Origin: an uncultured Nitrosopumilales archaeon
GTDB lineage: Archaea > Thermoproteota > Nitrososphaeria > Nitrososphaerales > UBA213
Direction: 5' to 3'
NCBI GenBank assembly: GCA_964373125.1
Contig: CAYJSN010000008.1
Span: 4,244 to 68,243, forward strand
DNA length: 64,000 bases
The translations under genes and the position numbers were made by a program. Positions 5,189 to 53,533 of the stretch are shown here, piece after piece. Every line of letters begins with the position of its first letter. Position 1 is the stretch's first letter. Under the pieces are notes generated by a model. It searched no databases. It saw only the letters and a list, made by a program, of their open reading frames with translations, and was not told the DNA's origin.

Positions 5189-6718
5189 ATGGACAAGATC
5201 ATAGTTCTGGACTTTGGCTCCCAGTACGCACACCTGATCTGCAGGAGGATAAGAGAGTGCAAGGTCTACTCCGAGCTCGTCCCGTACGGCATCTCGGCAG
5301 AGGAGTTGAGGAAGATGCAACCGACGGGGCTGATATTCTCGGGCGGTCCGGCGAGCGTCTACGAGCCCGGCGCGCCGAAGTGCGACAACAAGATCTTCGA
5401 TATGGGGTTGCCGATACTCGGCATCTGCTACGGCCATCAACTACTTGTGCACAGCTTCGGCGGCAAGGTGAAGCGTGCCAAGCGCGAGTACGGCTCCGCA
5501 GATCTTATGATCGATGATAAATCCGACCTCTTCAGCAACCTGGACTCCAAGATACGGTGCTGGATGAGCCACGCCGACGCGGCCGAGAACCTTCCCGACG
5601 GCTTCAAAATCCTGGCCCACACCGAGAACTCCTTTGCGGCGGCCATAGGCAACAAGGACAGGAAGGTTTACGGCATCCAGTTCCACCCCGAGGTCGCGCA
5701 CACCGAGCGAGGCTTGGACATACTGAAGAACTTCTCGACCAGGGTCTGCAGCGCCAGGCAGGAGTGGGATATGAAGAACTTTGTGGAGAGCACGGTGGAG
5801 GAGATCAGGAAGCAGGTAGGAAACGAGCCGGTCCTGTGCGCAACGAGCGGCGGTATTGACTCGACCGCAACTGCACTCATCCTGCACAGGGCCATAGGCG
5901 ATAGATTACGCTGCATCTTCGTGAACCACGGCCTGCTGAGGGAGGGCGAGGATGACGAGGTCGTGAGGATGTTCAAGGACAACTTCGGGATCAGGCTCAT
6001 CCACATCGATGCGCAGGAACGGTTCATGCGGCGGCTGAAAGGAATCACCGATCCGGAGCAGAAGCGCATGATAATCGGCGAGGAGTTCGCCAGGGTCTTC
6101 GAGGACGCCGTGAAGGAGCAGGGGCCGTTCCAGTGGCTGGCGCAGGGCACATTATATCCTGATGTGATAGAGAGCGGTGTATCGAAGGGCCCGGCCGCCA
6201 GGATCAAGGCGCACCACAATGTCGCAGGGCTGCCTGACTGGCTGAACCTGAAAGTAATAGAGCCACTGCAGAACCTCTACAAGGACGAGGTTAAGGAAGT
6301 AGCCAAGCTGCTCGGCATGCCCGATCATCTGATAAGGCGGCATCCGTTCCCCGGCCCCGGTTTAGCTGTTAGGATAATCGGCGATGTCACTAGGGAGAAG
6401 GTCGCGATCTGCAAGCATGCCAGCAGGATCGTAGAGGATGAGCTGGTGAAGGCCAACCTGTACGACAAGGTCTGGCAGGCATTTGCGATCGTAGGCGATG
6501 ACAAGGGAGTCGGCGTGCTCGGCGATGAGAGAGTATACGGCCACATCGTCACTGTAAGGATAGTCGAATCATTGGATGCTATGACTGCAGACTGGGCAAG
6601 GATACCCCACGACCTTATGGAGCGCATCAGCAACAGGATAACCAACGAGATCGAGGGCGTTACGTGGGTGACATACGCAATCTCAAGCAAGCCGCCGGCC
6701 ACGATCGAGCCGCAGTAG
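5189..6718 (+). CDS. guaA: GMP synthase (glutamine-hydrolysing), fused GATase + ATP-PPase
   Basis: 509 aa. GATase triad context GICYGHQ and QFHPEV, PP-loop SGGIDST, C-terminal dimerisation domain ending TIEPQ. Confidence 0.95.
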   Translation: MDKIIVLDFGSQYAHLICRRIRECKVYSELVPYGISAEELRKMQPTGLIFSGGPASVYEPGAPKCDNKIFDMGLPILGICYGHQLLVHSFGGKVKRAKREYGSADLMIDDKSDLFSNLDSKIRCWMSHADAAENLPDGFKILAHTENSFAAAIGNKDRKVYGIQFHPEVAHTERGLDILKNFSTRVCSARQEWDMKNFVESTVEEIRKQVGNEPVLCATSGGIDSTATALILHRAIGDRLRCIFVNHGLLREGEDDEVVRMFKDNFGIRLIHIDAQERFMRRLKGITDPEQKRMIIGEEFARVFEDAVKEQGPFQWLAQGTLYPDVIESGVSKGPAARIKAHHNVAGLPDWLNLKVIEPLQNLYKDEVKEVAKLLGMPDHLIRRHPFPGPGLAVRIIGDVTREKVAICKHASRIVEDELVKANLYDKVWQAFAIVGDDKGVGVLGDERVYGHIVTVRIVESLDAMTADWARIPHDLMERISNRITNEIEGVTWVTYAISSKPPATIEPQ

Positions 6719-10102: not shown

Positions 10103-10720
10103 CTAAGAACCTTTCAAAAGTTTCTCAGCCAGCTCAAGCTCGCGAGCGGTGTTAACGTTCAGCGCCAACCCGGGCTCGTCCATCAGCAGCACCTCTTCCT
10201 CCACCGGCCGGGAGCCGGATACATGCGACGTGTCGATCATGCTGACCCCGGTGTAGCAAACGGTCCTGCCGTCGTGCTCGAAACAATATTCTGCCCCGGC
10301 GCCCAGCCTCTTGACAAGGTTCTCGCTCACCACCACCGCCAGCGAGGGTTTGGAGCGCTGCTCGAACCTGCCCGCGATCTTTCTTACTGTTTCAGCATCC
10401 AAGAGGGGCAGGTCGGCCGGCACGATGAAGACGCCCTTCGGCTTGATTGTTTGCAGCAGGTCGCCGAGATCTCTGACATAATCTGTGCCCGAGCTGTCGG
10501 AGATCAGGACACCGCGTTCTGTGAGGTATTGTGCAGTCCGGGGAGTGCTGCTGCTCACCAGCGCCATTATGCGCTCGAAGCACCCCGAGTCCTTCAGGGC
10601 CTCCAGGACGTAGCTGACCACCGGTTTGCCTCCCGCGTTAATCATCGGCTTCTCCTGCCCGGAGCGCATCCTGGTTCCCCTGCCCCCGGCCATTATTACC
10701 GCGATCAACCCTGCCTGCAT
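10103..10720 (-). CDS. cobY: Adenosylcobinamide-phosphate guanylyltransferase (CobY-type NTP transferase)
   Basis: 205 aa. N-terminal IAVIMAGGRGTRM nucleotidyltransferase motif. Last gene of the cobD-cobQ-cbiB-cobS-cobY string. Confidence 0.75.
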   Translation of the reverse strand: MQAGLIAVIMAGGRGTRMRSGQEKPMINAGGKPVVSYVLEALKDSGCFERIMALVSSSTPRTAQYLTERGVLISDSSGTDYVRDLGDLLQTIKPKGVFIVPADLPLLDAETVRKIAGRFEQRSKPSLAVVVSENLVKRLGAGAEYCFEHDGRTVCYTGVSMIDTSHVSGSRPVEEEVLLMDEPGLALNVNTARELELAEKLLKGS

Positions 10721-10724
10721 CCTC

Positions 10725-11465
10725 CTACAGCATCGAGGCCAGAATTATCAGCGATGAGAGCCGCGTTATCTCGTTCGAGGCGCCGAAGACGTCGCCCGAG
10801 ACCCCGCCGAAGCTCCTGTTCGCAACTTTCAGCAGGATGAACGCTATCAGGACGGCGGCTCCCAGAGCGTACAGCCCGGCGGTGCCGGCCAGAAGGTAGG
10901 CCAGCGGCACGGTGATCGCGACCGAGGCCAGGAACTTCGGCCTGCTCTTCATCTGCTCCGTGAAGGGTGACCCTATCCCTTCCCAAGCAGCTATACCCCG
11001 GTGTGCCTGCAACACCATCACGAACTTTGCTATCGCCTCGCTCGCTATCAGGGCGGTGAGCAGGGCGAGCCCGTTCATCATCGAGACCGCGATAACCGAA
11101 CCTGCAAGGTAAAGCACCAGCGACGCAACTCCCGCCGAACCGGCCCTGGGGTCACGCATGGCCTTCCGCTTCGAGTCCTTGGTGCCCTTTGCCATCAGCC
11201 CGTCCGCAAAATCAGACAGCGCGTCGGTGTGGTGCGAGCCGGTAAGGACAAAGAGCGCGGCCGTTGCGATCAGGCCCACAAGCAGGCCGCCCAGGACCAT
11301 CGAGAGCCCGAATGCTAATGAACCAATGATGAGCCCGATTATCGCGCCGGCAGCCGGGAAGAGGAACATGTGGCGCGCGATGTAGTTTACCTCGTAATCC
11401 TTGCCTGTGGGCAGGATCGTCAAAAATGAAAGTAACGCGCGTATCTGGTTCAGGCTCCTCACCAA
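10725..11465 (-). CDS. cobS: Adenosylcobinamide-GDP ribazoletransferase (cobalamin synthase)
   Basis: 246-aa polytopic membrane protein. LSFLTILP N-terminal motif, HHTDALSDFADG motif. Confidence 0.85.
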   Translation of the reverse strand: MVRSLNQIRALLSFLTILPTGKDYEVNYIARHMFLFPAAGAIIGLIIGSLAFGLSMVLGGLLVGLIATAALFVLTGSHHTDALSDFADGLMAKGTKDSKRKAMRDPRAGSAGVASLVLYLAGSVIAVSMMNGLALLTALIASEAIAKFVMVLQAHRGIAAWEGIGSPFTEQMKSRPKFLASVAITVPLAYLLAGTAGLYALGAAVLIAFILLKVANRSFGGVSGDVFGASNEITRLSSLIILASML

Positions 11466-12421
11466 CCAAGAAGCGCGAGCAGGATGATCGCAGGCACGGC
11501 GAATACCAGGCTGAAGAGGATGGTGGTGATCTTCATTATCGTTATCGTCTTCTCGCAGTGCTCCAGTGTAAGGTGTTCATAGCTCTCTCCGAGCGAATAA
11601 TAACCAACCTTCTCGAGCCTGACCCTCAGCGCGCCCGCAACCGTGGAGATGGGCCAGCCGGCGTTGAGGCTGGGCGTCCTCTGCTTGTCCCTCTGGAGTA
11701 TGCGCGCCGAGTTCCTCCAGTCCGCGCCCACCATCCTTGCCGCGATGACCATCAGGAAGGCAGTGATCCTGGCAGGAATGTAGTTTGCAACCGTATCGAG
11801 CCTTGCCGAGAGGAACCCTATGTGTTTGTGGTACTCATCCTTGTAGCCGATCATCGAGTCCAGGGTGTTTATCGCCCGGTAGGCAAAGGCCCCCGGCAGC
11901 CCGAAGAGCGCATAATGGAATATTGGCGCTGTGATACCGTCGACCGTGCTCTCGCTGACGCTCTCGATCGTCGCAGAGAGGATGTGCTGCCCGTCCAAGT
12001 TCGAGGTGTCCCTCCCCACTATCTTCGAGAGGTTCGTCCTTGCGGCATCCATGTCATTCATTGCCAAGGCATTCATAACTGCCCTGGCATGCCGCTCCAT
12101 CGACCTGATCGCGATCGTGCTCTTCAGCATCAGCACGCTCAGCGGTACGAGCACGAATAATCCGAAGAACTCCCCGACGTAATGGAGCAGGTAGTACGCC
12201 GACAGGGCGGCGAGGGCAACTACAGCTACGGCAAAGACCGCACCGTTGACTCGCTCGATCCCCGCAGAGCGGTGCTTCAACTTGGGAGCGACGGAGTCGA
12301 TCAGCCTGCCCAGCCACGCCGTCGGATGCGCTTTGTTCGGAGGGTCGCCCGCGGCAAGGTCCAGCGCCACCGCGGCCGCGAGCACCAGTAGCGAGGCAAG
12401 GAGTTCGATCATTGGAATCAT
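11459..12421 (-). CDS. cbiB: Adenosylcobinamide-phosphate synthase
   Basis: 320-aa membrane protein. GDPPNKAHPTAWLG, NTLDSMIGYK, GWPISTVAGAL motifs. Confidence 0.85.
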   Translation of the reverse strand: MIPMIELLASLLVLAAAVALDLAAGDPPNKAHPTAWLGRLIDSVAPKLKHRSAGIERVNGAVFAVAVVALAALSAYYLLHYVGEFFGLFVLVPLSVLMLKSTIAIRSMERHARAVMNALAMNDMDAARTNLSKIVGRDTSNLDGQHILSATIESVSESTVDGITAPIFHYALFGLPGAFAYRAINTLDSMIGYKDEYHKHIGFLSARLDTVANYIPARITAFLMVIAARMVGADWRNSARILQRDKQRTPSLNAGWPISTVAGALRVRLEKVGYYSLGESYEHLTLEHCEKTITIMKITTILFSLVFAVPAIILLALLGW

Positions 12422-12422
12422 C

Positions 12423-13913
12423 TCAGTGGAGGCCTGCCAGGGCCATCAAGCGCTGCATATCGATGTTAGCCCTCACTATCTCGCTCAGCCTCTGGGTCTG
12501 AATGTCCCAGAACTCCATCGCGCCTAGGTCATGCGCGGAGGCTTTCAAGCCTTTCCTTTGGGCGACGAGCCCCAGAATTGTATTCCGGATTGCGGGGGCG
12601 TCGAAGAGTCCGTAGACGCAGGAGCCCAGTGCGAGCCCGTCCCTGCCCGCCGAGCCCTCCGCGAACTTTTTGCCCCTGCCGTTCAGGCCGGTGACGTCCA
12701 GGAGCGGCGCTGCTCCCCTGCCCCTGACCAGCCTGTAATCCTGCCGCAGGTGGCCCTGTATCACGCCGGCGCCAAGGTGGCTAGCCTTCGATATCTCTGC
12801 TCTTATCCTGCCCGAAAGCCTGTCCGCAGAATGAGCTACCACATCAAGGAGGCCCAAGCCGTCGAGCCGCCGGGAGCCGGTGAATATGCGTTTGCACATC
12901 ATCGCGTACCCGTCGCCGATGCCTATGACCGGGGTGCCTGCTGCATGGAGCGCTCTTATCCTCTCGGCTGTCCCGCTTTCGTGCAGCCACTCCAAGTCCC
13001 GGGCAATGTCCCTGCTCGGCGGCAGCAGTATGATATCAGCCTCGTCGAGCCTGTTCGACGGCGTCACATGGTAGGCATTCGTGGCAGCGGAGGCCTGCAG
13101 CAGCGGGTCAAGGTCGGAGAGGTTGGCTGCGCCCGGGTACCTGATTATGGCCATGTTGATCCTGTCCGGCCTAGCTGCCCCCCTGCCCATGCCGAGCGAG
13201 TCCTCGCTGGGCAGCAGCATCTCATCGATGAAGGGAATTATTCCTAGAACCGGCTTGCCCGTCATCTTCTCAAAGCGGCTCACGGCCGGGTGCAGGATCG
13301 ATTTGTCGCCCCTGAACTTGTTTATCACGAACCCTTTGACCAGGGTCTTGTGCTTACGCTCCAGCAGCTGCAGGGTGCCGACCATGCTCGCGAAGCAACC
13401 GCCCCGCTCGATGTCGGCGACGATAACCACCGGGGCCCTGATCTTCTCTGCGAGCTTCATGTTGGCGAGGTCGTACCTTGCAAGGTTTATCTCGGCCGGG
13501 CTTCCCGCGCCCTCGATCACGATCAGGTCGTAATCCTCGGAGAGCTTCCTGATCGCCTGGGCAACGTACCTTGCGCCGTCCCGCATCACGAACCCGTTGT
13601 AGTAGTCTTTTGCATGCATCTCCCGGTACTCCCTGCCCAAGAGCACGACCTTGCTCACATAGTCGCCCATCGGCTTGAGCAGGATCGGGTTCATGTAGAC
13701 GCTGGGCTCCGTCCTAGCCGCCACCGCCTGGAGGGCCTGGGCCCTCGCCATCTCCAAGCCATCAGCAGTTATGTGGACGTTGGATGACATGTTCTGGGCC
13801 TTCAGCGGGGCTACTCTGTAACCCTTGTCGGAGAATATCCTGCAGAGCGCCGCTGTCAGGGTGCTCTTGCCGGAGTTGGAAGAGGTGCCCTGCACCATCA
13901 GGAACCTGACCAT
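12423..13913 (-). CDS. cobQ: Cobyric acid synthase (glutaminase domain degenerate, see findings)
   Basis: Start taken at MVRFLMVQGTSSNSGKSTL, 4 nt after the cobD stop. Full-length collinearity with CobQ/CbiP (NPILLKP, GLGLL, YGLFD). Confidence 0.85.
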   Translation of the reverse strand: MVRFLMVQGTSSNSGKSTLTAALCRIFSDKGYRVAPLKAQNMSSNVHITADGLEMARAQALQAVAARTEPSVYMNPILLKPMGDYVSKVVLLGREYREMHAKDYYNGFVMRDGARYVAQAIRKLSEDYDLIVIEGAGSPAEINLARYDLANMKLAEKIRAPVVIVADIERGGCFASMVGTLQLLERKHKTLVKGFVINKFRGDKSILHPAVSRFEKMTGKPVLGIIPFIDEMLLPSEDSLGMGRGAARPDRINMAIIRYPGAANLSDLDPLLQASAATNAYHVTPSNRLDEADIILLPPSRDIARDLEWLHESGTAERIRALHAAGTPVIGIGDGYAMMCKRIFTGSRRLDGLGLLDVVAHSADRLSGRIRAEISKASHLGAGVIQGHLRQDYRLVRGRGAAPLLDVTGLNGRGKKFAEGSAGRDGLALGSCVYGLFDAPAIRNTILGLVAQRKGLKASAHDLGAMEFWDIQTQRLSEIVRANIDMQRLMALAGLH

Positions 13914-13917
13914 CGCG

Positions 13918-15048
13918 CTAGACCTCCCCGTCTTCCTGCCCGAGGGCATCTATCAGTATATTATTCTCGCTCCGCCTCTGGACGGAGACTCGGACATGGT
14001 CGGTGCCCATCCCCGTGAAACTGCTGCAGTCCCTCACCAAGACTCTGTGCTTCTTCAGCAACCTAGATTTCAGCGAGACCGAGTCTGTGTTCTTCAGCGT
14101 TACCAGGAAGAAGTTTGTATCAGAGCTGCAGGGGGCGAACCTGTGCATCCTAGATATCGCGCGCAGCAGGTAGGGCTTCTCGCGCTTCACCAGCGTCCTG
14201 GTCTTCCGCAGGTGCTCCCTGTCCTTCAGCGCGGCCACGGCCGCCACCTGTGCGAGGGCGTTGACACCCCAGGGGACCCTCACCTTGTTCAGGAGCCGGG
14301 CCATCTTCGTGCTCGCAACCGCATAGCCGGCCCTCAGCCCGGCAAGGCCGAAGGCCTTTGTAAGCGTCCGCAGGACGAGCAGGTTATCGTACTCCTTCAC
14401 TGCACTGACGAAGGAGTTCCGCTGCGGCTCCTCCACAAACTCCATGAAGCACTCGTCCAGCAGCACCAGCGTGCCGTTGTTGTACGCATGGTCGAGTATC
14501 TTTGCCACGCCCTGCCTTTCGGCCAGCAGCCCCGTCGGGTTGTTGGGGTTGCATACGAATACAGCTTTGGTCTGCTTGTCCATTGCGGCCAGCACCGGTT
14601 CTGGCTCCAGCCGGAAGTCCTCCAGCTCGACGTAGGTTATATTGGCAGAGTTCTTGTCGCAGGCAAACTCGTACTCGAAGAAGGTCGGGACGGGGATCAC
14701 GGCCTTCTCATCCTTCCCCACAAAGACATCAGCAAAGAGGTGGATGAGTTCATTCGCCCCGTTGCCTGCAACGATGCAGTCCTCGTCCCCGATCTGCAGG
14801 TAGTCCATCACCGCCCGCTTGAAGGTTTTTGAATCCGGGTCGGGGTATAATGAGATTAATTCAATATTCTGCCTGATCGCCTGGTGGACCTTCCGCGAGG
14901 CGCCGAGCGGGTTGACGTTCGTGCTGAAATCTATCAGGTCGCCGCCGTCCTTAACATAATGCCTGCCGCCGTGGGTGCGCGGGCTGGCCCTGAGAAAGCC
15001 TTCCTTTGCGAGCCGGTTCAGGTCGAGACGCCCGTGTCTGGTGAGCAC
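13918..15048 (-). CDS. cobD: L-threonine-O-3-phosphate decarboxylase (class-II aminotransferase fold)
   Basis: 376 aa. THGG...DFSTNVNPLG N-terminus, NPNNPTG, PLP-lysine context RTLTKAFGLAGLRAGY. Cobalamin operon context. Confidence 0.8.
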   Translation of the reverse strand: MLTRHGRLDLNRLAKEGFLRASPRTHGGRHYVKDGGDLIDFSTNVNPLGASRKVHQAIRQNIELISLYPDPDSKTFKRAVMDYLQIGDEDCIVAGNGANELIHLFADVFVGKDEKAVIPVPTFFEYEFACDKNSANITYVELEDFRLEPEPVLAAMDKQTKAVFVCNPNNPTGLLAERQGVAKILDHAYNNGTLVLLDECFMEFVEEPQRNSFVSAVKEYDNLLVLRTLTKAFGLAGLRAGYAVASTKMARLLNKVRVPWGVNALAQVAAVAALKDREHLRKTRTLVKREKPYLLRAISRMHRFAPCSSDTNFFLVTLKNTDSVSLKSRLLKKHRVLVRDCSSFTGMGTDHVRVSVQRRSENNILIDALGQEDGEV

Positions 15049-38198: not shown

Positions 38199-38764
38199 CT
38201 GGACTCTGTAGAAATCTCGGCCGGGCGGCCCTCGCCCCTGCACTCCTCGCAGAGGAACTTCCCGTCTGTGTACTGCAGATAGTCAGACCACTCGTTGCAC
38301 TCGTCACAGTAGCCCGATATCAGTGTCGGGCCCCTGCCCCTCTCTCCGCGCATCATGCTCGCCTTCTCGGAGACGATGTCCACGAGCTCCGGCATGACCG
38401 CGATCACGTCGGAAGTTGATACGATGCCGACGAGCCTCTCCTTGTAGGTTACCCCCAGCCGCTTTATGTTGTGCTTCCTGAGGAGCCTCGCTGCCTGCGT
38501 TACGCCCTCCTCGCTCTCTATGGTAACGAGAGACTGCATAAGATCCTTGGCAAGTATCCTGCTGGGGAGCTCGTCCCTGACGGCCGCCCGCGAGACGATG
38601 TCCCAGTCGCTTACTATGCCAACCGGCTTGCCGTTATCCATTATAACCACGGAGCCGATCTTTGCCGCCGTCATCTTGTTCGCAAGCTCCTTCACGCTTG
38701 CATTGGGCGCCGCAGTTATCACTGGGCTGTTCATCACGTCCTTCACCATTACCCTTGTAGTCAT
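38195..38764 (-). CDS. CBS-pair protein with C-terminal Zn ribbon
   Basis: 189 aa from MTTRVMVKDVM. Two CBS motifs. CDEC-x15-CEEC. ATGA overlap with the Mut7-C start. Confidence 0.8.
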   Translation of the reverse strand: MTTRVMVKDVMNSPVITAAPNASVKELANKMTAAKIGSVVIMDNGKPVGIVSDWDIVSRAAVRDELPSRILAKDLMQSLVTIESEEGVTQAARLLRKHNIKRLGVTYKERLVGIVSTSDVIAVMPELVDIVSEKASMMRGERGRGPTLISGYCDECNEWSDYLQYTDGKFLCEECRGEGRPAEISTESR

Positions 38765-38949
38765 GTGTGGATCTGTTTCTTCCCTGCGCCCCAACGGCTA
38801 TGCTTCAACTTACCCTCTCTTAATCATTTTGCTGGGCGCAACGCTTGTACAGAGCTCATCTTGGGAGATTTGGTCGATATGCCGCAACCACCCTGCCAGC
38901 CGCGGCAAACCAAAAGACATTAAACCCCGTCAATTGGAGAGAAGAAAGA

Positions 38950-39243
38950 TTGGGACCGATCGACAAGATCTTCTGGATAAGGGTTGGGTTTGCTGTTCTG
39001 GCAGGCGTACTTGCAGGCGCCCTGGGCTACGTCAGCCTGAACCCGATGGCCTTCCGCGGGATCGGAATCGGCTTCCTGATCTACTTCATCTCCTACATCG
39101 CGGTGAGGGTCGCCTTCACGAAGCAGCTTCCGCCGTCCGACTACAAGAAGCTGATCACCACCGGCATGCTGGCCTACGTGTTCATGTTTCTCTTCGTATG
39201 GGTGCTTTACAACACCTTCACCTACGGGCAGCAGACAGAATAA
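38950..39243 (+). CDS. Small 2-3 TM membrane protein (start uncertain)
   Basis: 97 aa from TTG preceded by ggagagaag. IFWIRVGFAVLAGVLAGALGY... The longer 38845 start adds a non-hydrophobic, Ala/Arg-rich leader. Confidence 0.45.
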   Translation: MGPIDKIFWIRVGFAVLAGVLAGALGYVSLNPMAFRGIGIGFLIYFISYIAVRVAFTKQLPPSDYKKLITTGMLAYVFMFLFVWVLYNTFTYGQQTE

Positions 39244-39273
39244 ATAAAAGAACGGAAGGTTTCTGGAACCTAG

Positions 39274-39864
39274 TTGTGGCCATATCGAACTGCAGGCATC
39301 CCTGACGAGATGTTCGAGAGAAACGAGCGCGTCCCGATAACGAAGGAGGAGGTCCGGGTTGTGGCGCTCAGCAAGGCAAGGCTCAGGGATGGCGCGGTTA
39401 TAATTGACATCGGCTGCGGGAGCGGGAGCATAAGCGTCGAGGCCGCCATCCAGGCCGGGGCCTCCGGCAGGGTCTATGCCGTTGACCAGGACGAGGAGGC
39501 CGTCAGGCTCACCGGGATCAACGCTAGGAAGTTCGGCATCTCCAACATCGAGGTGATACACTCCAAAGCCCAAGACGCTCTGGACAGGATGCCGGCGGCC
39601 GATGCCATCTTCATAGGCGGCACCGGCGGCGACACCTACGACATAATCAAGCTGGCATCCGGAAAGCTGAAGAGCAAAGGCAGGATCGTGTCGACGACGA
39701 TCCTGATCGAGACCATGTACCGCTCCCTGAAGGCCGTAGAGGAGGTCGGGCTGGAGGACATCGACATAACGCAGATAACCGCGGCCAAGAGCAGGAAGGT
39801 GAGCACAGGCACGATGATGCTGGCGCGCAACCCGGTGCTGATAATATCCGCGCAGAAACCCTGA
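39274..39864 (+). CDS. cbiT: Cobalt-precorrin-6B C15-methyltransferase (decarboxylating)
   Basis: 196 aa. GIPDEMFERNERVPITKEEVR N-terminus. SAM motif IDIGCGSGSISVEAA. Confidence 0.85.
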   Translation: MWPYRTAGIPDEMFERNERVPITKEEVRVVALSKARLRDGAVIIDIGCGSGSISVEAAIQAGASGRVYAVDQDEEAVRLTGINARKFGISNIEVIHSKAQDALDRMPAADAIFIGGTGGDTYDIIKLASGKLKSKGRIVSTTILIETMYRSLKAVEEVGLEDIDITQITAAKSRKVSTGTMMLARNPVLIISAQKP

Positions 39865-39905
39865 ATCTGCGTTTAAATATAGTGGGAATAATATCTGATG
39901 AAGAT

Positions 39906-40640
39906 ATGACCGGAAAACTTTTCTGCATCGGCTGCGGGCCGGGAGACCCGGAGCTGCTCACGCTCAGGGCGGCCGATATCCTGAGCTCATGCGATGTGAT
40001 CTTCTGCCCGACATCACGCCAAGGAAGAGAGAGCATGGCACTATCCATAGTCAGACCGATCCTGGAGAAGAGGGAGAAGCAGCCCGAGACTGTCGATCTC
40101 ATCTTTCCGATGGTGAAGGACAAGGCAACGCTCAGCGAAACCTGGCACAGGAATGCTGACGAGATCGCAAGGAGGTGCGCCGAGGGCAAGAAAACCGCCT
40201 ACCTGTGCGTGGGGGACCCGGCGCTCTACAGCACCTTCGCCTACATACACAAGGAGCTAAAAAGTCGATACCCCGAGATCGGGGTGGAGATAGTTCCCGG
40301 CGTTGCTTCATTATTCTCGTTTGCGTCGCAGGCCAAGATCAGCCTGGTCGAGGGAGACCAGACACTGGCCATCGTGCCGGCGTGTTACGACCTTGAGCGG
40401 GTAAAATCTGCGGCCAGCTCCTGCGATACCGTGATCTTCCTAAAGGACGGCAGGTACTTCGGCAGCGTGATCGAGATCCTGAAGCAGGCCGGCTTCCCGG
40501 ACGACTCGCTCATCGCGATCGCGCAGGACGTCTCTGCCGAGGGCGAGGTGGTCAGAGTCGCCAAGCTTGGGGAGGTCGGGAGCAGCAACCCGGCGGAGAA
40601 GTACTTCTCGATAATGGTGGTAAAGCGTGGGCGCGGCTAA
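39906..40640 (+). CDS. cbiL: Cobalt-precorrin-2 C20-methyltransferase
   Basis: 244 aa from MTGKLFCIGCGPGDPELLTLRAADIL. Tetrapyrrole methylase fold (CVGDPALYSTF). Confidence 0.8.
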   Translation: MTGKLFCIGCGPGDPELLTLRAADILSSCDVIFCPTSRQGRESMALSIVRPILEKREKQPETVDLIFPMVKDKATLSETWHRNADEIARRCAEGKKTAYLCVGDPALYSTFAYIHKELKSRYPEIGVEIVPGVASLFSFASQAKISLVEGDQTLAIVPACYDLERVKSAASSCDTVIFLKDGRYFGSVIEILKQAGFPDDSLIAIAQDVSAEGEVVRVAKLGEVGSSNPAEKYFSIMVVKRGRG

Positions 40641-41406
40641 GCCAAAGGTATGCTTCGTGGGCGCAGGGCCGGGCGATCCGGAGCTGATCACCCTGAAGGC
40701 GAAGAAGCTGATCGGAGCAGCAGATACGATCGTGTACTCCGGCTCGCTACTGCACCCCAAGCTGCTCAAGTACGCAAAGAAAGGCGCTGATCTTTACGAC
40801 GCCGCAGAGCTGGACAGGGAGAAGATATCCGAGATACTCATTGCCGCAGCGAAGAAGGGCAAGTTTGCGATCAGGCTGCACGACGGGGACCCTGCGCTCT
40901 TCAGCGCGATTCGGGAGCAGATCGACAGGCTGGAAAAGCAGGGCATAGAGTGCCAAGTTGTACCCGGCATAAGCGCGCTCTTCGCCGCCGCCGCAAGGCT
41001 GAACCTCGAGCTTACGCTGCCGGGCATAACGCAGAGCGTGATAATAACCAGGGCGGAGCTGAGGACGCCCGTGCCTGACCGGGAGCGGATATCGGAACTA
41101 GCGAGGCACAGGAGCACGATGGCCTTCTACCTGAGCGTGCACCTGACCGACCGCCTTGTCAGGGAGCTGGTCGCCGGGGGATATCCTCCAGAGACGCCCG
41201 CTGCTGTTGTATACAGGGCAACCTGGGAGGATGAAATTGTACTAACAGGCACGCTGGCGGACATCGCATCGAAGGTAAAGGCAGCGAGGATAACCAAGAC
41301 TGCCGTCGTGATAGTCGGGGATGTGCTCAGGCCGAAAAGCTACGAATTCTCCAAGGTCTACGACCCGGCGTTTACGCACACGTACAGGAAAGCAAGAAAA
41401 AGCTAG
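40627..41406 (+). CDS. cbiF: Cobalt-precorrin-4 C11-methyltransferase
   Basis: 259 aa, GTG start. VCFVGAGPGDPELITLKA, IVYSGSLL, LHDGDPALFSAIREQ. Confidence 0.85.
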   Translation: MGAAKPKVCFVGAGPGDPELITLKAKKLIGAADTIVYSGSLLHPKLLKYAKKGADLYDAAELDREKISEILIAAAKKGKFAIRLHDGDPALFSAIREQIDRLEKQGIECQVVPGISALFAAAARLNLELTLPGITQSVIITRAELRTPVPDRERISELARHRSTMAFYLSVHLTDRLVRELVAGGYPPETPAAVVYRATWEDEIVLTGTLADIASKVKAARITKTAVVIVGDVLRPKSYEFSKVYDPAFTHTYRKARKS

Positions 41407-41525: not shown

Positions 41526-42158
41526 CTAGGTGAATCTTGGCAGCTCTTCTGCGGCTGGTACTGAGGGGAGCCTGCTATCCACGTTCTTCTCTGCCACTGC
41601 GGAGGCTTCTGCCAGTATCTTCTCTACCTCCTCGTTGGAGGCGTCGCTCACGAAGCTGAAGCTTCCTCCGGAGAGCGTGTCAACCATCAGGTTGCCTAGC
41701 GTGCTCGTCATCTCTCCTATCTCGTTCTCCGCCTCGGGCATGAACTTCACCAACCCAGCCTTCACGCTCTTCATTGCGCCCACCGCAGGCATCAGTGCCA
41801 CCACAGCATCGCCCACATCGTGGACTGTGCTGAGTCTGAGATTCACCTGCTCGAGAGCCAACCTCGCGTGGCTGAGAGTCTTGGTTACCTTCCGCACCTC
41901 GGCCAGCTCGTTTGAGAGAACTCTTCCCGCATCCGCGTCGTGTTTCTGCATCGCGTCTACGATCCTCTTGAAGAGTGCCGAGTCCTTCTCGCGCATCTTC
42001 GCAAGCATCGTGTCCATCCTCTGTATCTGTGCTTGCAGTCTGTTCATTGCTCCGTCAATCCTCGGCCTCAGGGGTCCCTGTGGCTTGACGGTGTCCCTCA
42101 CCTTCTCTGCTACTCCTCTGTTGTCCGGTCTAGTCCAGTTCTTACCGAAGTTACTCAT
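41526..42158 (-). CDS. cdvB: ESCRT-III/Snf7-family protein (CdvB-like)
   Basis: 210 aa. Basic N-terminal helical hairpin, acidic C-terminus. Snf7-like heptad pattern (RLQAQIQRMDTMLAKMREKD...). Confidence 0.7.
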   Translation of the reverse strand: MSNFGKNWTRPDNRGVAEKVRDTVKPQGPLRPRIDGAMNRLQAQIQRMDTMLAKMREKDSALFKRIVDAMQKHDADAGRVLSNELAEVRKVTKTLSHARLALEQVNLRLSTVHDVGDAVVALMPAVGAMKSVKAGLVKFMPEAENEIGEMTSTLGNLMVDTLSGGSFSFVSDASNEEVEKILAEASAVAEKNVDSRLPSVPAAEELPRFT

Positions 42159-42324
42159 GGGCGATCCTCCTACGTTTTGTTATTAATTCTAGGTGTGTAT
42201 TATTATTGATAACAAAGACAAACGCCAAGTTTACACTCTTCCTCATGCACAGAGATATCTCACTGCGGCTCCTGCTTCTCACTCCTGCACAAAGCAATTA
42301 TTACAAGTCCGCGTTTACCAGTGC

Positions 42325-50131: not shown

Positions 50132-52969
50132 TTGTGGGACAGCGCTCAATCCAAGCCGAGGCAGGACATAGGCAACTACATAAGGATCGGACTCTTCGCG
50201 CTCATAGCCCTGGTAATTTTTGGCATAGTGAGCAGCCAGTCGGTCGTGATCCTGCTCAACGTTACCGAGTTTCAGGACCTGTTCGTCAAGCCGCTCTACT
50301 ACGCGATACTCTCCGGGCTAATCCTTGCATCGATAGCCCTGATCAGGGTGGACGTACGGCACCGGGAATCCATGGTCTGGTGGATCATCTCCGCCGGCAT
50401 CTCTTTTTTGAGAAGGGAGGCGCCTGAACAAGGCAAGGCTTCTTTCAGGTACCGCGATTTCAAGTTGGGCAGGGGACATTTTGCGCTGTGGCAGGTCACA
50501 AAGGTTCTGCTCCTTGCCCCGATCTTCAGCAACCTGATGTTCGGAATGGCAACCCAGTACGTGCTGGACGGCAAAGAGCTAGGACTTTCATCGCTCTCCC
50601 AGATATTCTACCTGCCGTTCATAACGTCGCCAAACCCTGCCATCGCCGAAGAGCTGGTGCTGCCGATGATCCCGTCGCTCACGCTGCTGATACCCCCGGT
50701 ACTCGGCGCGATCGGGATCAGGCTCGTGCTCTACGTCGGCGTGCGCAACATAGCCCACATAATCTCCGGCTACCTTTCCGATGCGGCGGAGGGCAGGCCA
50801 AGGTTCCTCTTCTACATAGCCGTGCTTGAGATGATAGTAGGCACAGGTCTCTTCTGGTCGTCCTTCAACATGTTCTTCCAGTCGAACATAGACTACAACA
50901 CCAAGTATGCAATAGCCGGCACCGCGCTCCTAGGTGCTGCATTTGTGGCATGGTCGCTGATAGACAGGAGGAAGTCCAAGGTGATACTCATGTTCCCGTC
51001 AAGGAAGAACATCTACCTGCGCCTCCTCACCATAATCTCTATAGCCGTTGTGGTGGGCTCGATAATGGCCGTGAACAACAGCATAGCCGATGCGAGGAAG
51101 ATCGAGTGGCTGGGGCCGTACACTGCCCAGCAGATCGTGGTCAACAGGTACTTTGCGGACCTCGACCAGGTCAAGGAGGTGAACTACGACATCGAGCTCT
51201 TCGCGACCCCGCCAAGCAGCACCAAGGAACCCACGGAAGAAAGTAAGGAGATACTCTCAAAGGTGCGGCTCTGGGACTGGAGCGCGGCCTTTGCCAAGCT
51301 GAAGCCCGAGATCGGGCTCATACCGTATGTTGACTTTTACGACTCGGACATAATCCGGTTCAACGGCACGCTGTACTGGAGCGCCGCGATGCAGCCGATA
51401 CTTCCGTCCAGCGTAACCGCCGAGAACCAGTGGTACTCTGAGCACCTGGTCTACACCCACGTGCCGAACGGGTTCCTGATGCTCGACGCCCACGACGGCG
51501 ACATAGTGAACAGCAATAACTTCTTCGATCAGAGAAGGATATACTACGGGGAGGGCGGGCTGCTCAGCGAGGTCTGGTCCGCCTACCCGGCCGACAGGCA
51601 GACGAGCGACGAGCTTGACGGATACTTTTACAACGGCGATGGCGGGATAACGGTTCCCCCGCCCCTGAGCTGGATGTTCGAGCCCAACTTCCTGCTCTCT
51701 TACCCGGATGAGGCCATACACATAATGCGCTACAAGGACGTGCACGACAGGATGCAGCTGCTATATCCATACTTTGAGTATGACTTTGGGAACAGACGCG
51801 TGGACGTGCTTCCCGTCACCGACGGCCCCAACACATACTGGCTGATGCCGCTCATTGTGCGGCTGGATACCGACCGTGTGCCGTGGAGCGCCGACAACCC
51901 GATGTACAGGCTGGTTGGCTACATACTGATCGACACCTACGACGGAAGCCACCAGATACTGGTAAAAGGCGAGGACTTCTTCACGGAGATTTTCGTTGAT
52001 CAGTACCAAGAGCACGTCACGCGGGAGATCCCGTCCTGGCTTCACAACCAGCTGAGGTACCCCGAGGAGCTGTTCTGGTGGAAGGTAAACATGTACAACT
52101 TCTACCACGTGACCGACACATCAACATTCATAGTCGCAAAGGAGTTCTACGAGATACCCTCCGGGCTGACCCCCTACTACATATTCGCCAAGCCGCAGGG
52201 CTTCGAAAAGATCGAGTACATCTCGCTCCTCTCCCTCGAGCTGAGGGGAGCTGCGGGGAGGAACCTTGCCGGCTACATGGTGGTGCGGAATGACTATCCC
52301 TACGATGGCGATCTGGTATTCTACGAGGTTTCGCTCGAGTCGGAGGTGAAGCTGCTAGGACCCAGCGCCGTCAGGGAGGCGCTCGACAGGGACCCGGATT
52401 TTGCTCAGCTGAAGACCCTGCTGAGGAACCCGAGAATCGGCGATAACATACTCTACAGGATAGGCGACCGCGATGTCTACTTCATACCCGTATACACGGC
52501 CGGGGCCGGTGGCGTGGTAACCCAGCTGGGCACCATCGCGGCCGTGGGCGCGACCTTCACGGGCGAGTATTACGTTGGTCTGGGCGATACCGCTGAGAAG
52601 GCCTTCAACGCCTACCTTGCTAAGCGTATCGGCATTAAGGCGCCTCCGGGCCTGCCGACGCTGCTTGACCGTGATGCAAAGGTACGCAGTCTCATGCAGC
52701 TGTTAGAGGAGAGAGGGGTCGATGTTGCGAGGCCTGCGTCGATATCGGTCCCGCTGACATTCTTGGAGGGAGAGCTGGAGTACGGCGACGAATCTGATTT
52801 CGAGGATGTGAAGCTCGGGATCGACGAGTTTATCAACACCTGGGTGAAGGAGGGCGGGGCCAAAAGGATTCTGGCCTGGGAGGAAGAGGAGGCGATCAAC
52901 TTCGGCGTTGCGACTGTTGTAGACGGCATAACCGAACTGCACTACGTGGCGGTCAAGGTAGGCAGATAG
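50132..52969 (+). CDS. UPF0182-family large membrane protein
   Basis: 945 aa, TTG start. About 7 N-terminal TM segments plus a large soluble part with LRYPEELFWWKVNMYNFYHV, RNLAGYMVVRNDYPYDG, GDNILYRIGDRDVYFIPVYT blocks typical of UPF0182 as I recall it. Confidence 0.75.
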   Translation: MWDSAQSKPRQDIGNYIRIGLFALIALVIFGIVSSQSVVILLNVTEFQDLFVKPLYYAILSGLILASIALIRVDVRHRESMVWWIISAGISFLRREAPEQGKASFRYRDFKLGRGHFALWQVTKVLLLAPIFSNLMFGMATQYVLDGKELGLSSLSQIFYLPFITSPNPAIAEELVLPMIPSLTLLIPPVLGAIGIRLVLYVGVRNIAHIISGYLSDAAEGRPRFLFYIAVLEMIVGTGLFWSSFNMFFQSNIDYNTKYAIAGTALLGAAFVAWSLIDRRKSKVILMFPSRKNIYLRLLTIISIAVVVGSIMAVNNSIADARKIEWLGPYTAQQIVVNRYFADLDQVKEVNYDIELFATPPSSTKEPTEESKEILSKVRLWDWSAAFAKLKPEIGLIPYVDFYDSDIIRFNGTLYWSAAMQPILPSSVTAENQWYSEHLVYTHVPNGFLMLDAHDGDIVNSNNFFDQRRIYYGEGGLLSEVWSAYPADRQTSDELDGYFYNGDGGITVPPPLSWMFEPNFLLSYPDEAIHIMRYKDVHDRMQLLYPYFEYDFGNRRVDVLPVTDGPNTYWLMPLIVRLDTDRVPWSADNPMYRLVGYILIDTYDGSHQILVKGEDFFTEIFVDQYQEHVTREIPSWLHNQLRYPEELFWWKVNMYNFYHVTDTSTFIVAKEFYEIPSGLTPYYIFAKPQGFEKIEYISLLSLELRGAAGRNLAGYMVVRNDYPYDGDLVFYEVSLESEVKLLGPSAVREALDRDPDFAQLKTLLRNPRIGDNILYRIGDRDVYFIPVYTAGAGGVVTQLGTIAAVGATFTGEYYVGLGDTAEKAFNAYLAKRIGIKAPPGLPTLLDRDAKVRSLMQLLEERGVDVARPASISVPLTFLEGELEYGDESDFEDVKLGIDEFINTWVKEGGAKRILAWEEEEAINFGVATVVDGITELHYVAVKVGR

Positions 52970-53533
52970 ATGCTTCTGGTTGTCGACAACCTTTCCTCGT
53001 ACCTAGACGATCTTGTCCGCTCACTGGCGGAAACCGGTGCGAGCTGCGAGGTGAAGCGATACGACGCCCTCGGCGGATCCAACCTGAACAACTATGACGG
53101 CATAATAATTTCCGGCAGGATGAAGAACGACGGGTCTGTGAATGTACCGAACATGCGCGTCGTGAAATTCGCACACGAAAACAGCAAACCGCTGCTGGGC
53201 ATCTGCTACGGTGCGGAGATCACCGCGCTTGCGTTAGGCGGTTCCCTCCGCAGGCTGGAGGAAAGAGTGACCGGCGAGCGGGCGGTGGCCATCAGGAGAA
53301 GCAACCCCCTGACCAGCAAGAAGACGGTACGCGTATTCGAGAGCCACGGCTACTACATTGCCCGCCTGCCGCAGGAGTTTTCTGCGCTGGGCGACTCTGA
53401 GAGCTGCAGGTACGAGTTCGTAGGCCTTAACAAAAAACCGATCTTCGGCACGCAATTTCATCCGGAGGTCAGGGTCGGTGGCGGCGACGGGCTGGAGATC
53501 ATCGGCAACTTCGTCAGACTGACCAGACGCTAA
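52970..53533 (+). CDS. Stand-alone class I glutamine amidotransferase
   Basis: 187 aa. ATG directly follows the UPF0182 stop (TAGATG). PLLGICYGAE nucleophile elbow, GTQFHPEV His-Glu. Confidence 0.8.
   Translation: MLLVVDNLSSYLDDLVRSLAETGASCEVKRYDALGGSNLNNYDGIIISGRMKNDGSVNVPNMRVVKFAHENSKPLLGICYGAEITALALGGSLRRLEERVTGERAVAIRRSNPLTSKKTVRVFESHGYYIARLPQEFSALGDSESCRYEFVGLNKKPIFGTQFHPEVRVGGGDGLEIIGNFVRLTRR

Follow-up and report, generated by a model that had tools for sequence, protein, structure and literature searches.

A Nitrososphaerales cobyric acid synthase with a predicted pseudo-glutaminase domain and a probable dependence on free ammonia

Cobyric acid synthase (CobQ/CbiP; EC 6.3.5.10) performs four of the six amidations of the corrin ring, and its established role is the ATP-dependent activation of the b, d, e and g carboxylates (PMC7242693). 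CobQ and CobB share the catalytic Cys-His dyad of Staphylococcus aureus GatD, which mutagenesis has shown to consist of Cys94 and His189, and they do so without the third residue of a triad (PMC5871853). In GatD the exchange C94G abolishes the glutamine-dependent amidation of lipid II and leaves the NH3-dependent activity of its synthetase partner MurT unaffected (PMC3266927). A related question, whether single-domain NAD synthetases rely on a hidden glutaminase or on free ammonia, has been settled in favour of ammonia in vivo (PMC3376133). Here we analyse the cobQ gene of a 64,000-nucleotide stretch of DNA from an uncultured Nitrosopumilales archaeon (GenBank assembly GCA_964373125.1, contig CAYJSN010000008.1; the whole stretch is called the window below). 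An earlier note on this DNA had proposed that the encoded protein joins a canonical amidoligase half to a glutaminase half devoid of the catalytic Cys and His. Comparison of sequences, together with analogy to the systems just described, leads us to suggest that the window CobQ is probably an ammonia-dependent cobyric acid synthase which carries a relic pseudo-glutaminase.

Translation of the gene gives GIGDGYAMMC (window positions 12894-12923) and GSCVYGLFD (12600-12626) at the two catalytic sites. A MAFFT alignment of 120 homologues pairs Gly333 with the Cys of GICGGYQMLG and Tyr434 with the His of GTYxHGxFD; a phmmer search against the PDB aligns the GIGDG of the query to GICVG of HisH; and a profile of 117 CobQs places ICGGYQ and GTYLHG on Cys94 and His189 of S. 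aureus GatD. The Gly that the earlier note had read at the nucleophile position is thus confirmed by translation and by three alignments, and the Tyr that it had read in place of the His by translation, the MAFFT alignment and the GatD profile. Neighbouring positions of the first motif are near-invariant among the 86 listed homologues with both catalytic residues (G334 98%, Q337 99%, G340 100%), and at positions conserved in at least 85% of these canonical proteins the query shows further changes, namely G334 to Asp, Q337 to Ala, a change at D345 and the deletion of one conserved Glu. Moreover, PGxKxT, which contains the oxyanion Gly299, has become PPSRDI and GYEIHMG has become GHLRQDY. A hidden Markov model (HMM) built from canonical glutaminase domains only gives the query 112 bits, as against 219-312 bits for held-out canonical domains. 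The Cys elbow, the catalytic His and the oxyanion and glutamine-site motifs, which are features of the glutamine-hydrolysing class, are not found in the query, and since the dyad and the glutamine-site motifs are gone, the glutamine-hydrolysing half-reaction that defines EC 6.3.5.10 is not expected.

The fold of the protein is nevertheless predicted to be retained. Pfam assigns CbiA/AAA_26 to residues 5-231 and GATase_3 (PF07685; GATase, glutamine amidotransferase) to residues 254-440, the latter with 77 bits at a cutoff of 27, and the AlphaFold2 model consists of two confident domains (predicted local distance difference test, pLDDT, 93.3; predicted template modelling score 0.90). In the PDB the full-length model comes closest to CTP synthase, its C-terminal domain to GatD and its N-terminal domain to dethiobiotin synthetase. 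As judged by sequence and model, the GATase_3 domain is a pseudoenzyme, folded yet catalytically stripped. A sequencing error was considered as its cause and rejected, as a second contig, from a Logan assembly, encodes the identical protein, though it may stem from the same sequencing run, and as the nearest relative (P0002, 67% identity) has Gly333 and Tyr434 like the query.

How does this protein compare with the described systems? It resembles canonical CobQ/CbiP (TIGR00313, NF001989) in HMM score, in its two domains, in predicted fold and in operon place, and differs from it in the absence of the dyad Cys and His and of most glutamine-site motifs. GatD is the closest solved homologue of its glutaminase domain, and GatD C94G carries the same exchange of the nucleophile Cys for Gly. 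However, that variant is engineered and belongs to a two-subunit enzyme with a Mur-ligase synthetase, whereas the change in the query is natural, is accompanied by loss of the His and of the motifs, and resides in a fused protein. Vertebrate carbamoyl phosphate synthetase I likewise has a class-I GATase-like domain without the catalytic Cys and uses free ammonia, but its synthetase is unrelated and its domain, in an enzyme of eukaryotes, has an allosteric or structural function. NadE is a further amidoligase family that exists with and without a glutaminase and whose single-domain forms use free ammonia in vivo (PMC3376133); yet its glutaminase is nitrilase-like and its single-domain state is thought to be ancestral, whereas the loss in CobQ is secondary. 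With the domain-less CobQs of 279-292 amino acids from Nitrosopumilus, Nitrososphaera and Nitrosocaldus, finally, the query shares the N-domain clade, the synteny, the changes at residues 44, 46 and 88 and the C-terminal helices; in contrast to them it keeps the glutaminase domain at full length, predicted to be folded and under purifying selection. In the searchable literature, which is incomplete, we found no account of a thaumarchaeotal CobQ that lacks its glutaminase or depends on ammonia, only statements that cobQ is present, and the short proteins are already in the databases under the plain name 'cobyric acid synthase'.

The exchange of His for Tyr is found in 28 of 28 full-length relatives at 54-67% identity in the 120-homologue alignment, the named members of which are entered as 'Nitrososphaerales archaeon'. 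These Tyr-type proteins also have CEG[FY]A for CGGYQ, P[SP]xRx[IL] for PGxKxT and AYLRxDY for GYEIHMG. Homologues at 45% identity or less are canonical, among those listed, and in the same alignment the only exception in the dyad outside the query clade and the Nitrosocaldaceae is a protein with Ser for Cys (P0118). A thaumarchaeote outside the clade and outside the ammonia oxidisers, with the same operon order, has a canonical Cys/His CobQ. The nucleophile Cys is kept in 24 of the 28 Tyr-type proteins and lost in four, the query and P0002 (both Gly), P0013 (Arg) and P0040 (Glu), while two further proteins from Nitrosocaldaceae have Asn or Asp at this position. The three Nitrosocaldaceae CobQs in question are shortened to 442-449 amino acids and represent intermediate forms. 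To judge from this distribution the nucleophile Cys was lost several times after the exchange of the His. The trait is not special to the window gene, which is by the same sequence comparison a full-length relic of a clade-wide loss.

In other members of the group the domain is missing altogether. When GTDB species genomes were scanned with the alignment of the clade, the matches listed were mostly bacterial, but among them were a CobQ of 285 amino acids in a Nitrososphaera metagenome-assembled genome (MAG; L047) and one of 292 amino acids in Ca. Nitrosocaldus schleperae (L033), both encoded between cobD and cbiB. Such short CobQs consist of the synthetase domain joined by a brief linker to the last helices, with residues ~250-460 deleted, and cbiB begins at the stop of the short cobQ, which leaves no space for a glutaminase or a split gene at the locus. 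Short forms occur in over 120 clusters of Nitrososphaera; the best 120 clusters around the Nitrososphaera form are all 275-285 amino acids long, have no GATase_3 match and include Ca. Nitrososphaera gargensis Ga9.2 (2.83-Mb genome); the best 120 clusters around the Nitrosopumilus form are all 278-281 amino acids long and include N. adriaticus, N. ureiphilus and strain b3. Because short forms occupy all of the best 120 clusters in both searches, they are the rule and not an assembly artefact. Past the synthetase domain, only the C-terminal helices (residues 465-496 of the query) are also kept in the domain-less orthologues. The AlphaFold2 model of the N. gargensis protein (pLDDT 89.6) shows a complete fold with the secondary structure of the long-form N-domain, in which the terminal helices 254-281 reach a pLDDT of 96-98 and only the linker 240-250 is disordered.

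The long, the shortened and the domain-less genes lie in the same surroundings. The order UbiD/UbiA, AsnC, asd, cobD, cobQ, cbiB, cobS, cobY, S27e/L44e, thermosome, GuaA, MptE is common to the window, to N. adriaticus, to a 2.49-Mb genome whose CobQ has 284 amino acids, to a 2.63-Mb genome whose CobQ is of the Tyr type and has 493 amino acids, and to Nitrosocaldaceae. This conserved synteny identifies the three forms as orthologues, and a paralogue is ruled out by its extent from Nitrosopumilus to Nitrosocaldaceae. Positions 1-20500 of the window, which comes from a genome of 57% GC, match N. adriaticus CP011070.1 246852-267691 (L087) in gene order. In a neighbour-joining tree of the N-domain, which was made without bootstrap and is indicative only, the whole group is monophyletic beside canonical Nitrososphaerota sequences; within it the Nitrosocaldus short forms stand beside the shortened Nitrosocaldaceae proteins and apart from the short forms of Nitrosopumilus and Nitrososphaera. 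An alignment of long and short forms shows that the deletion boundaries differ between the short-form groups. Together, the placement in the tree and the differing boundaries argue for at least two independent deletions of the domain.

The synthetase half, on the other hand, is preserved. Its P-loop (GTSSNSGKST) is intact and all columns that are invariant across the 117 CobQs are retained in the query, which bears out the earlier description of this half as canonical. The N-domain is modelled with a pLDDT above 90 and matches dethiobiotin synthetase and CTP synthase in Foldseek. Three residues, which in canonical CobQ are conserved to at least 95% as Leu44, Ser46 and Gln88, have been exchanged in every group of the clade, be it the long Tyr-type, the Nitrosocaldaceae, the Nitrososphaera or the Nitrosopumilus group, that is in long, shortened and domain-less proteins. 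On the evidence of these replacements the synthetase domain has co-evolved with the loss of the glutaminase, and we infer that residues 44, 46 and 88 line the tunnel exit or the domain interface.

What, then, would be the nitrogen donor? According to our proposal the synthetase half would still amidate the four corrin carboxylates at b, d, e and g in an ATP-dependent manner, and the nitrogen would be supplied as free NH3 by the ammonium of the cytoplasm, reaching the enzyme at its synthetase site or via the vestigial tunnel. The enzyme would be an ammonia-dependent ligase (6.3.1-type) instead of the glutamine-hydrolysing 6.3.5.10. The loss would have occurred on the stem of the clade that holds the ammonia-oxidising genera, most lineages would then have deleted the domain, and in the window lineage purifying selection would maintain it, presumably for a task, structural or otherwise, that has nothing to do with glutaminase activity. 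Nitrosopumilus maritimus makes cobalamin in pure culture (PMC8281238, where Heal et al. 2017 is summarised as well), and every CobQ recovered from its genus is the form of 279 amino acids without the glutaminase domain. The dispensability of the domain in sister lineages, taken together with cobalamin synthesis by N. maritimus, favours free ammonia, and so do the precedents of GatD C94G and of the single-domain NAD synthetases; we infer that ammonia is the actual donor. The earlier view that loss of the Cys-His pair should keep a CobQ from hydrolysing glutamine in the normal way is supported by the clade-wide loss, by the deletion of the domain and by the Cys-to-Gly variant of GatD. As for the two sources of nitrogen which the earlier note had considered, free ammonia, thought fitting for a lineage that may live on it, or a borrowed glutaminase, the comparative evidence speaks for the former, and the orphan GATase of the window has no link to cob genes.

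Several points weigh against this proposal. For canonical CobQ and CbiA the Km for ammonia is in the millimolar range, and the ammonium that surrounds marine ammonia oxidisers is in the nanomolar range. The Km objection is softened by our own reasoning that the need for B12 and the flux towards it are tiny, so that even a poor Km for ammonia may suffice. Then again, GatD/MurT used NH3 in vitro only at pH 8.5 (PMC3266927). The window contains no amo genes, and its organism would be an ammonia oxidiser by virtue of its gene-tree position and synteny. A cbiA/CobB gene was found neither in the window nor beyond the window ends nor in six related loci, and it was likewise not found within 10 kb of cobQ in four loci (L082, L085, L087, L088) or of cbiF in 80 metagenome loci. 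Finally, the relic domain is not in free decay: its identity is still 55-67% at an N-domain identity of 76-83%, and replacement residues are conserved among the Tyr-type proteins (R301 in 28/28, E334 in 26/28, Y393 in 25/28, Y434 in 28/28).

These conserved replacements and the retained identity indicate that the relic domain is under selection and has some function where it is kept, even though, relative to the N-domain, it evolves faster than its canonical counterparts (ratio of GATase to N-domain identity 0.59-0.81 in the clade versus 0.78-0.91 in canonical CobQs). This function could be structural or regulatory, or it could be a new binding site; other lineages manage without the domain. 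We consider it possible, if rather doubtful, that the relic has been re-purposed around R301, E334, Y393, Y434 and Cys333/Cys431 as a gate or sensor for ammonia or ammonium or as a site for another donor, corrin amidation running on free ammonia across the clade. Were this so, a direct tie would link the intracellular ammonia pool of major archaeal producers, in the ocean as in soil, to their output of B12. Cys333 and Cys431 are both present in 24 and both absent in 4 of the 28 Tyr-type proteins, the query subclade having Cys432; residues 333 and 431/432 (window positions 12915-12917 and 12618-12623) may form a functional pair, in a pattern behind which stand only about two independent events.

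Could the nitrogen still come from glutamine? A glutaminase might act in trans, docking on CobQ and delivering ammonia as GatD does for MurT, and the orphan GATase of the window, a stand-alone GATase_3 protein or CbiA might play this part. Split pairs of glutaminase and synthetase such as GatD/MurT are common, and for single-domain NAD synthetase it took an experiment to settle the same question (PMC3376133). Moreover, Cys and His-Pro-Glu are intact in the orphan GATase, and the synthesis of GMP does not require it, since a fused GuaA is encoded at 5189-6718; in this respect it is surplus. However, this orphan, to which the earlier note had pointed, shows no link to cob genes, as its ATG directly follows the stop of a gene for a 945-residue UPF0182 membrane protein (50132-52969) and it has no cob neighbour. 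Nor does a glutaminase gene lie in the operon or, in five related loci, in the 10 kb on either side of cobQ; the dead domain of the query still fills the place where a partner would dock; and decay in place, with the His lost, the Cys lost and the domain truncated and then deleted, is unlike gene fission. We therefore regard a partner in trans as unlikely. To an unorthodox hydrolysis of glutamine or another amide by the domain itself, through Cys432 or Cys340 with Tyr434, His388 or Asp334, we give the least credence of all, even though 27 of the 28 Tyr-type proteins have a Cys at 431 or 432 beside the old His position, Cys432 of the query, by the i/i+2 rule, shares a strand face with Tyr434, and the replacement residues are conserved in the clade. 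Gly299 of the oxyanion hole is lost, as are Gln337 and the E-I-H motif, GatD C94G is inactive with glutamine (PMC3266927), and the deletion of the whole domain in sister lineages shows that glutaminase activity is not needed. Cys340, Cys432, His361 and His388 each occur in a minority of the clade only, and the lack of a conserved alternative Cys or His makes such catalysis unlikely; the takeover by another Cys and His, which the earlier note had named as the finding that would overturn it, is thus not borne out by sequence conservation.

It would also be conceivable that the gene is an incipient pseudogene, or that its product no longer makes cobyric acid, in which case the organism would salvage corrinoids or leave the amidations to another enzyme. 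The loss of catalytic glutaminase residues and the accelerated divergence of the GATase domain would agree with such a fate, but we consider it very improbable. The reading frame is intact and translationally coupled in a complete operon, every synthetase invariant is kept and identity of the N-domain is high within the clade; an intact coupled operon and a conserved synthetase domain make pseudogenisation unlikely. In addition, the presence of cbiT, cbiL and cbiF in the window indicates a genome with genes for the corrin ring and not for salvage only, and N. maritimus makes cobalamin although it belongs to a genus with domain-less CobQ. An ammonia-dependent synthetase with a relic glutaminase thus remains our preferred explanation.

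Ammonia-oxidising archaea are counted among the main marine producers of cobalamin, and in soil, too, their genes feature prominently. Should their CobQ work with free ammonia and not with glutamine, B12 synthesis draws on the energy substrate of these organisms, and the supply of B12 to auxotrophs could follow the availability of ammonia. The label that annotation pipelines give these proteins, glutamine-hydrolysing (EC 6.3.5.10), is probably incorrect across the clade, four glutamines per B12 should not be charged to these organisms in metabolic models, and the short CobQs would escape any screen that demands a GATase_3 domain. With its steps from intact through loss of the His, loss of the Cys and truncation to deletion, the series illustrates cleanly how a fused glutaminase can be discarded in nature. 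Within this series, which spans the ammonia-oxidising archaea, the window gene is a full-length intermediate and the best form for asking why the domain is kept.

Table 1. Positions in the window of cobQ, its domains and key codons, and of the other genes considered
Feature	Coordinates	Strand	Details and basis
cobQ/cbiP coding sequence	12423..13913	minus	496 amino acids plus stop codon (12423-12425); open reading frame list, NCBIfam, Pfam
ATP-dependent amidoligase domain (dethiobiotin-synthetase-like)	13179..13913	minus	residues 1-245, predicted intact; Pfam, P-loop, AlphaFold2, Foldseek
Codon of residue 44	13782-13784	minus	
Codon of residue 46	13776-13778	minus	
Codon of residue 88	13650-13652	minus	
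Relic GATase_3 domain (CobB/CobQ-type)	12594..13166	minus	residues ~250-440; predicted fold retained, active site rewritten
Gly333 codon	12915..12917	minus	position of nucleophile Cys (GatD Cys94)
Tyr434 codon	12612..12614	minus	position of catalytic His (GatD His189)
C-terminal helices	12426..12521	minus	residues 465-496; alignment of long and short forms; helices 465-483 and 486-492 in the model
cobD/cobC-type pyridoxal phosphate enzyme (threonine-phosphate decarboxylase or HisC-like)	13918..15048	minus	operon gene 1
cbiB (adenosylcobinamide-phosphate synthase)	11459..12421	minus	NCBIfam 321 and 280 bits, above cutoffs
cobS (cobalamin synthase)	10725..11465	minus	NCBIfam TIGR00317 175 bits, cutoff 110
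cobY-like nucleotidyltransferase	10103..10720	minus	last gene of the operon; Pfam NTP_transf_3; NCBIfam AdoCbiPCobY 80 bits, below cutoff
cbiT	39274-39864	plus	second cobalamin cluster
cbiL	39882-40640	plus	second cobalamin cluster
cbiF	40627-41406	plus	second cobalamin cluster
Orphan class-I GATase (PF00117)	52970-53533	plus	187 amino acids; intact Cys in GICYG and His-Pro-Glu; under all NCBIfam equivalog cutoffs

That the window open reading frame is a true CobQ/CbiP orthologue follows from its equivalog HMM scores, the conserved operon and the long-range synteny. The protein is a full-length equivalog match to both NF001989 (473.9 bits, cutoff 273) and TIGR00313 (432.5 bits, cutoff 309.9), and a protein of 496 amino acids identical to it is present in a public collection (P0001). 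The tightly packed order cobD-cobQ-cbiB-cobS-cobY (Table 1) constitutes a cluster for the lower cobalamin pathway. The start of cobQ was placed at the ATG at 13913, which lies 4 nucleotides past the cobD stop, is preceded by GGGGAGG and gives an N-terminus that agrees with the homologues; a longer version from the ATG at 13949 was rejected, as it would run into cobD. At the other end, cbiB starts 1 nucleotide past the stop codon of cobQ. The cobD-type gene scores just under the cutoff of NCBIfam L_thr_O3P_dcar (274 bits, cutoff 290.55) and just over that of hisC (279 bits, cutoff 276.55), is assigned to Aminotran_1_2 by Pfam and holds the same place in all related loci examined.

The second cobalamin cluster, cbiT-cbiL-cbiF, is flanked by two open reading frames (38466-39305, 279 amino acids; 41530-42186, 218 amino acids) that have no match in Pfam or NCBIfam and may be divergent cbi genes. 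Over positions 1-64000 no Rfam family reached its gathering score, so that tRNA and rRNA are absent and neither of the cob clusters is preceded by a cobalamin riboswitch; an involvement of a riboswitch was discarded on these grounds.

Loss of the glutaminase may also occur outside the archaea, as a domain-less CobQ of 296 amino acids (P0346) is encoded on a 62.9-kb contig of a Bacillota MAG. Two further examples are a protein of 327 amino acids that has an internal deletion with GTYLHG kept (P0353) and P0118, the CobQ of canonical length with Ser for the nucleophile Cys mentioned above. Many proteins of 840-980 amino acids (among them P0271, P0276, P0293, P0296 and P0328), in which the CobQ synthetase starts near residue 360-430, are N-terminal fusions that join CobQ to a different module.

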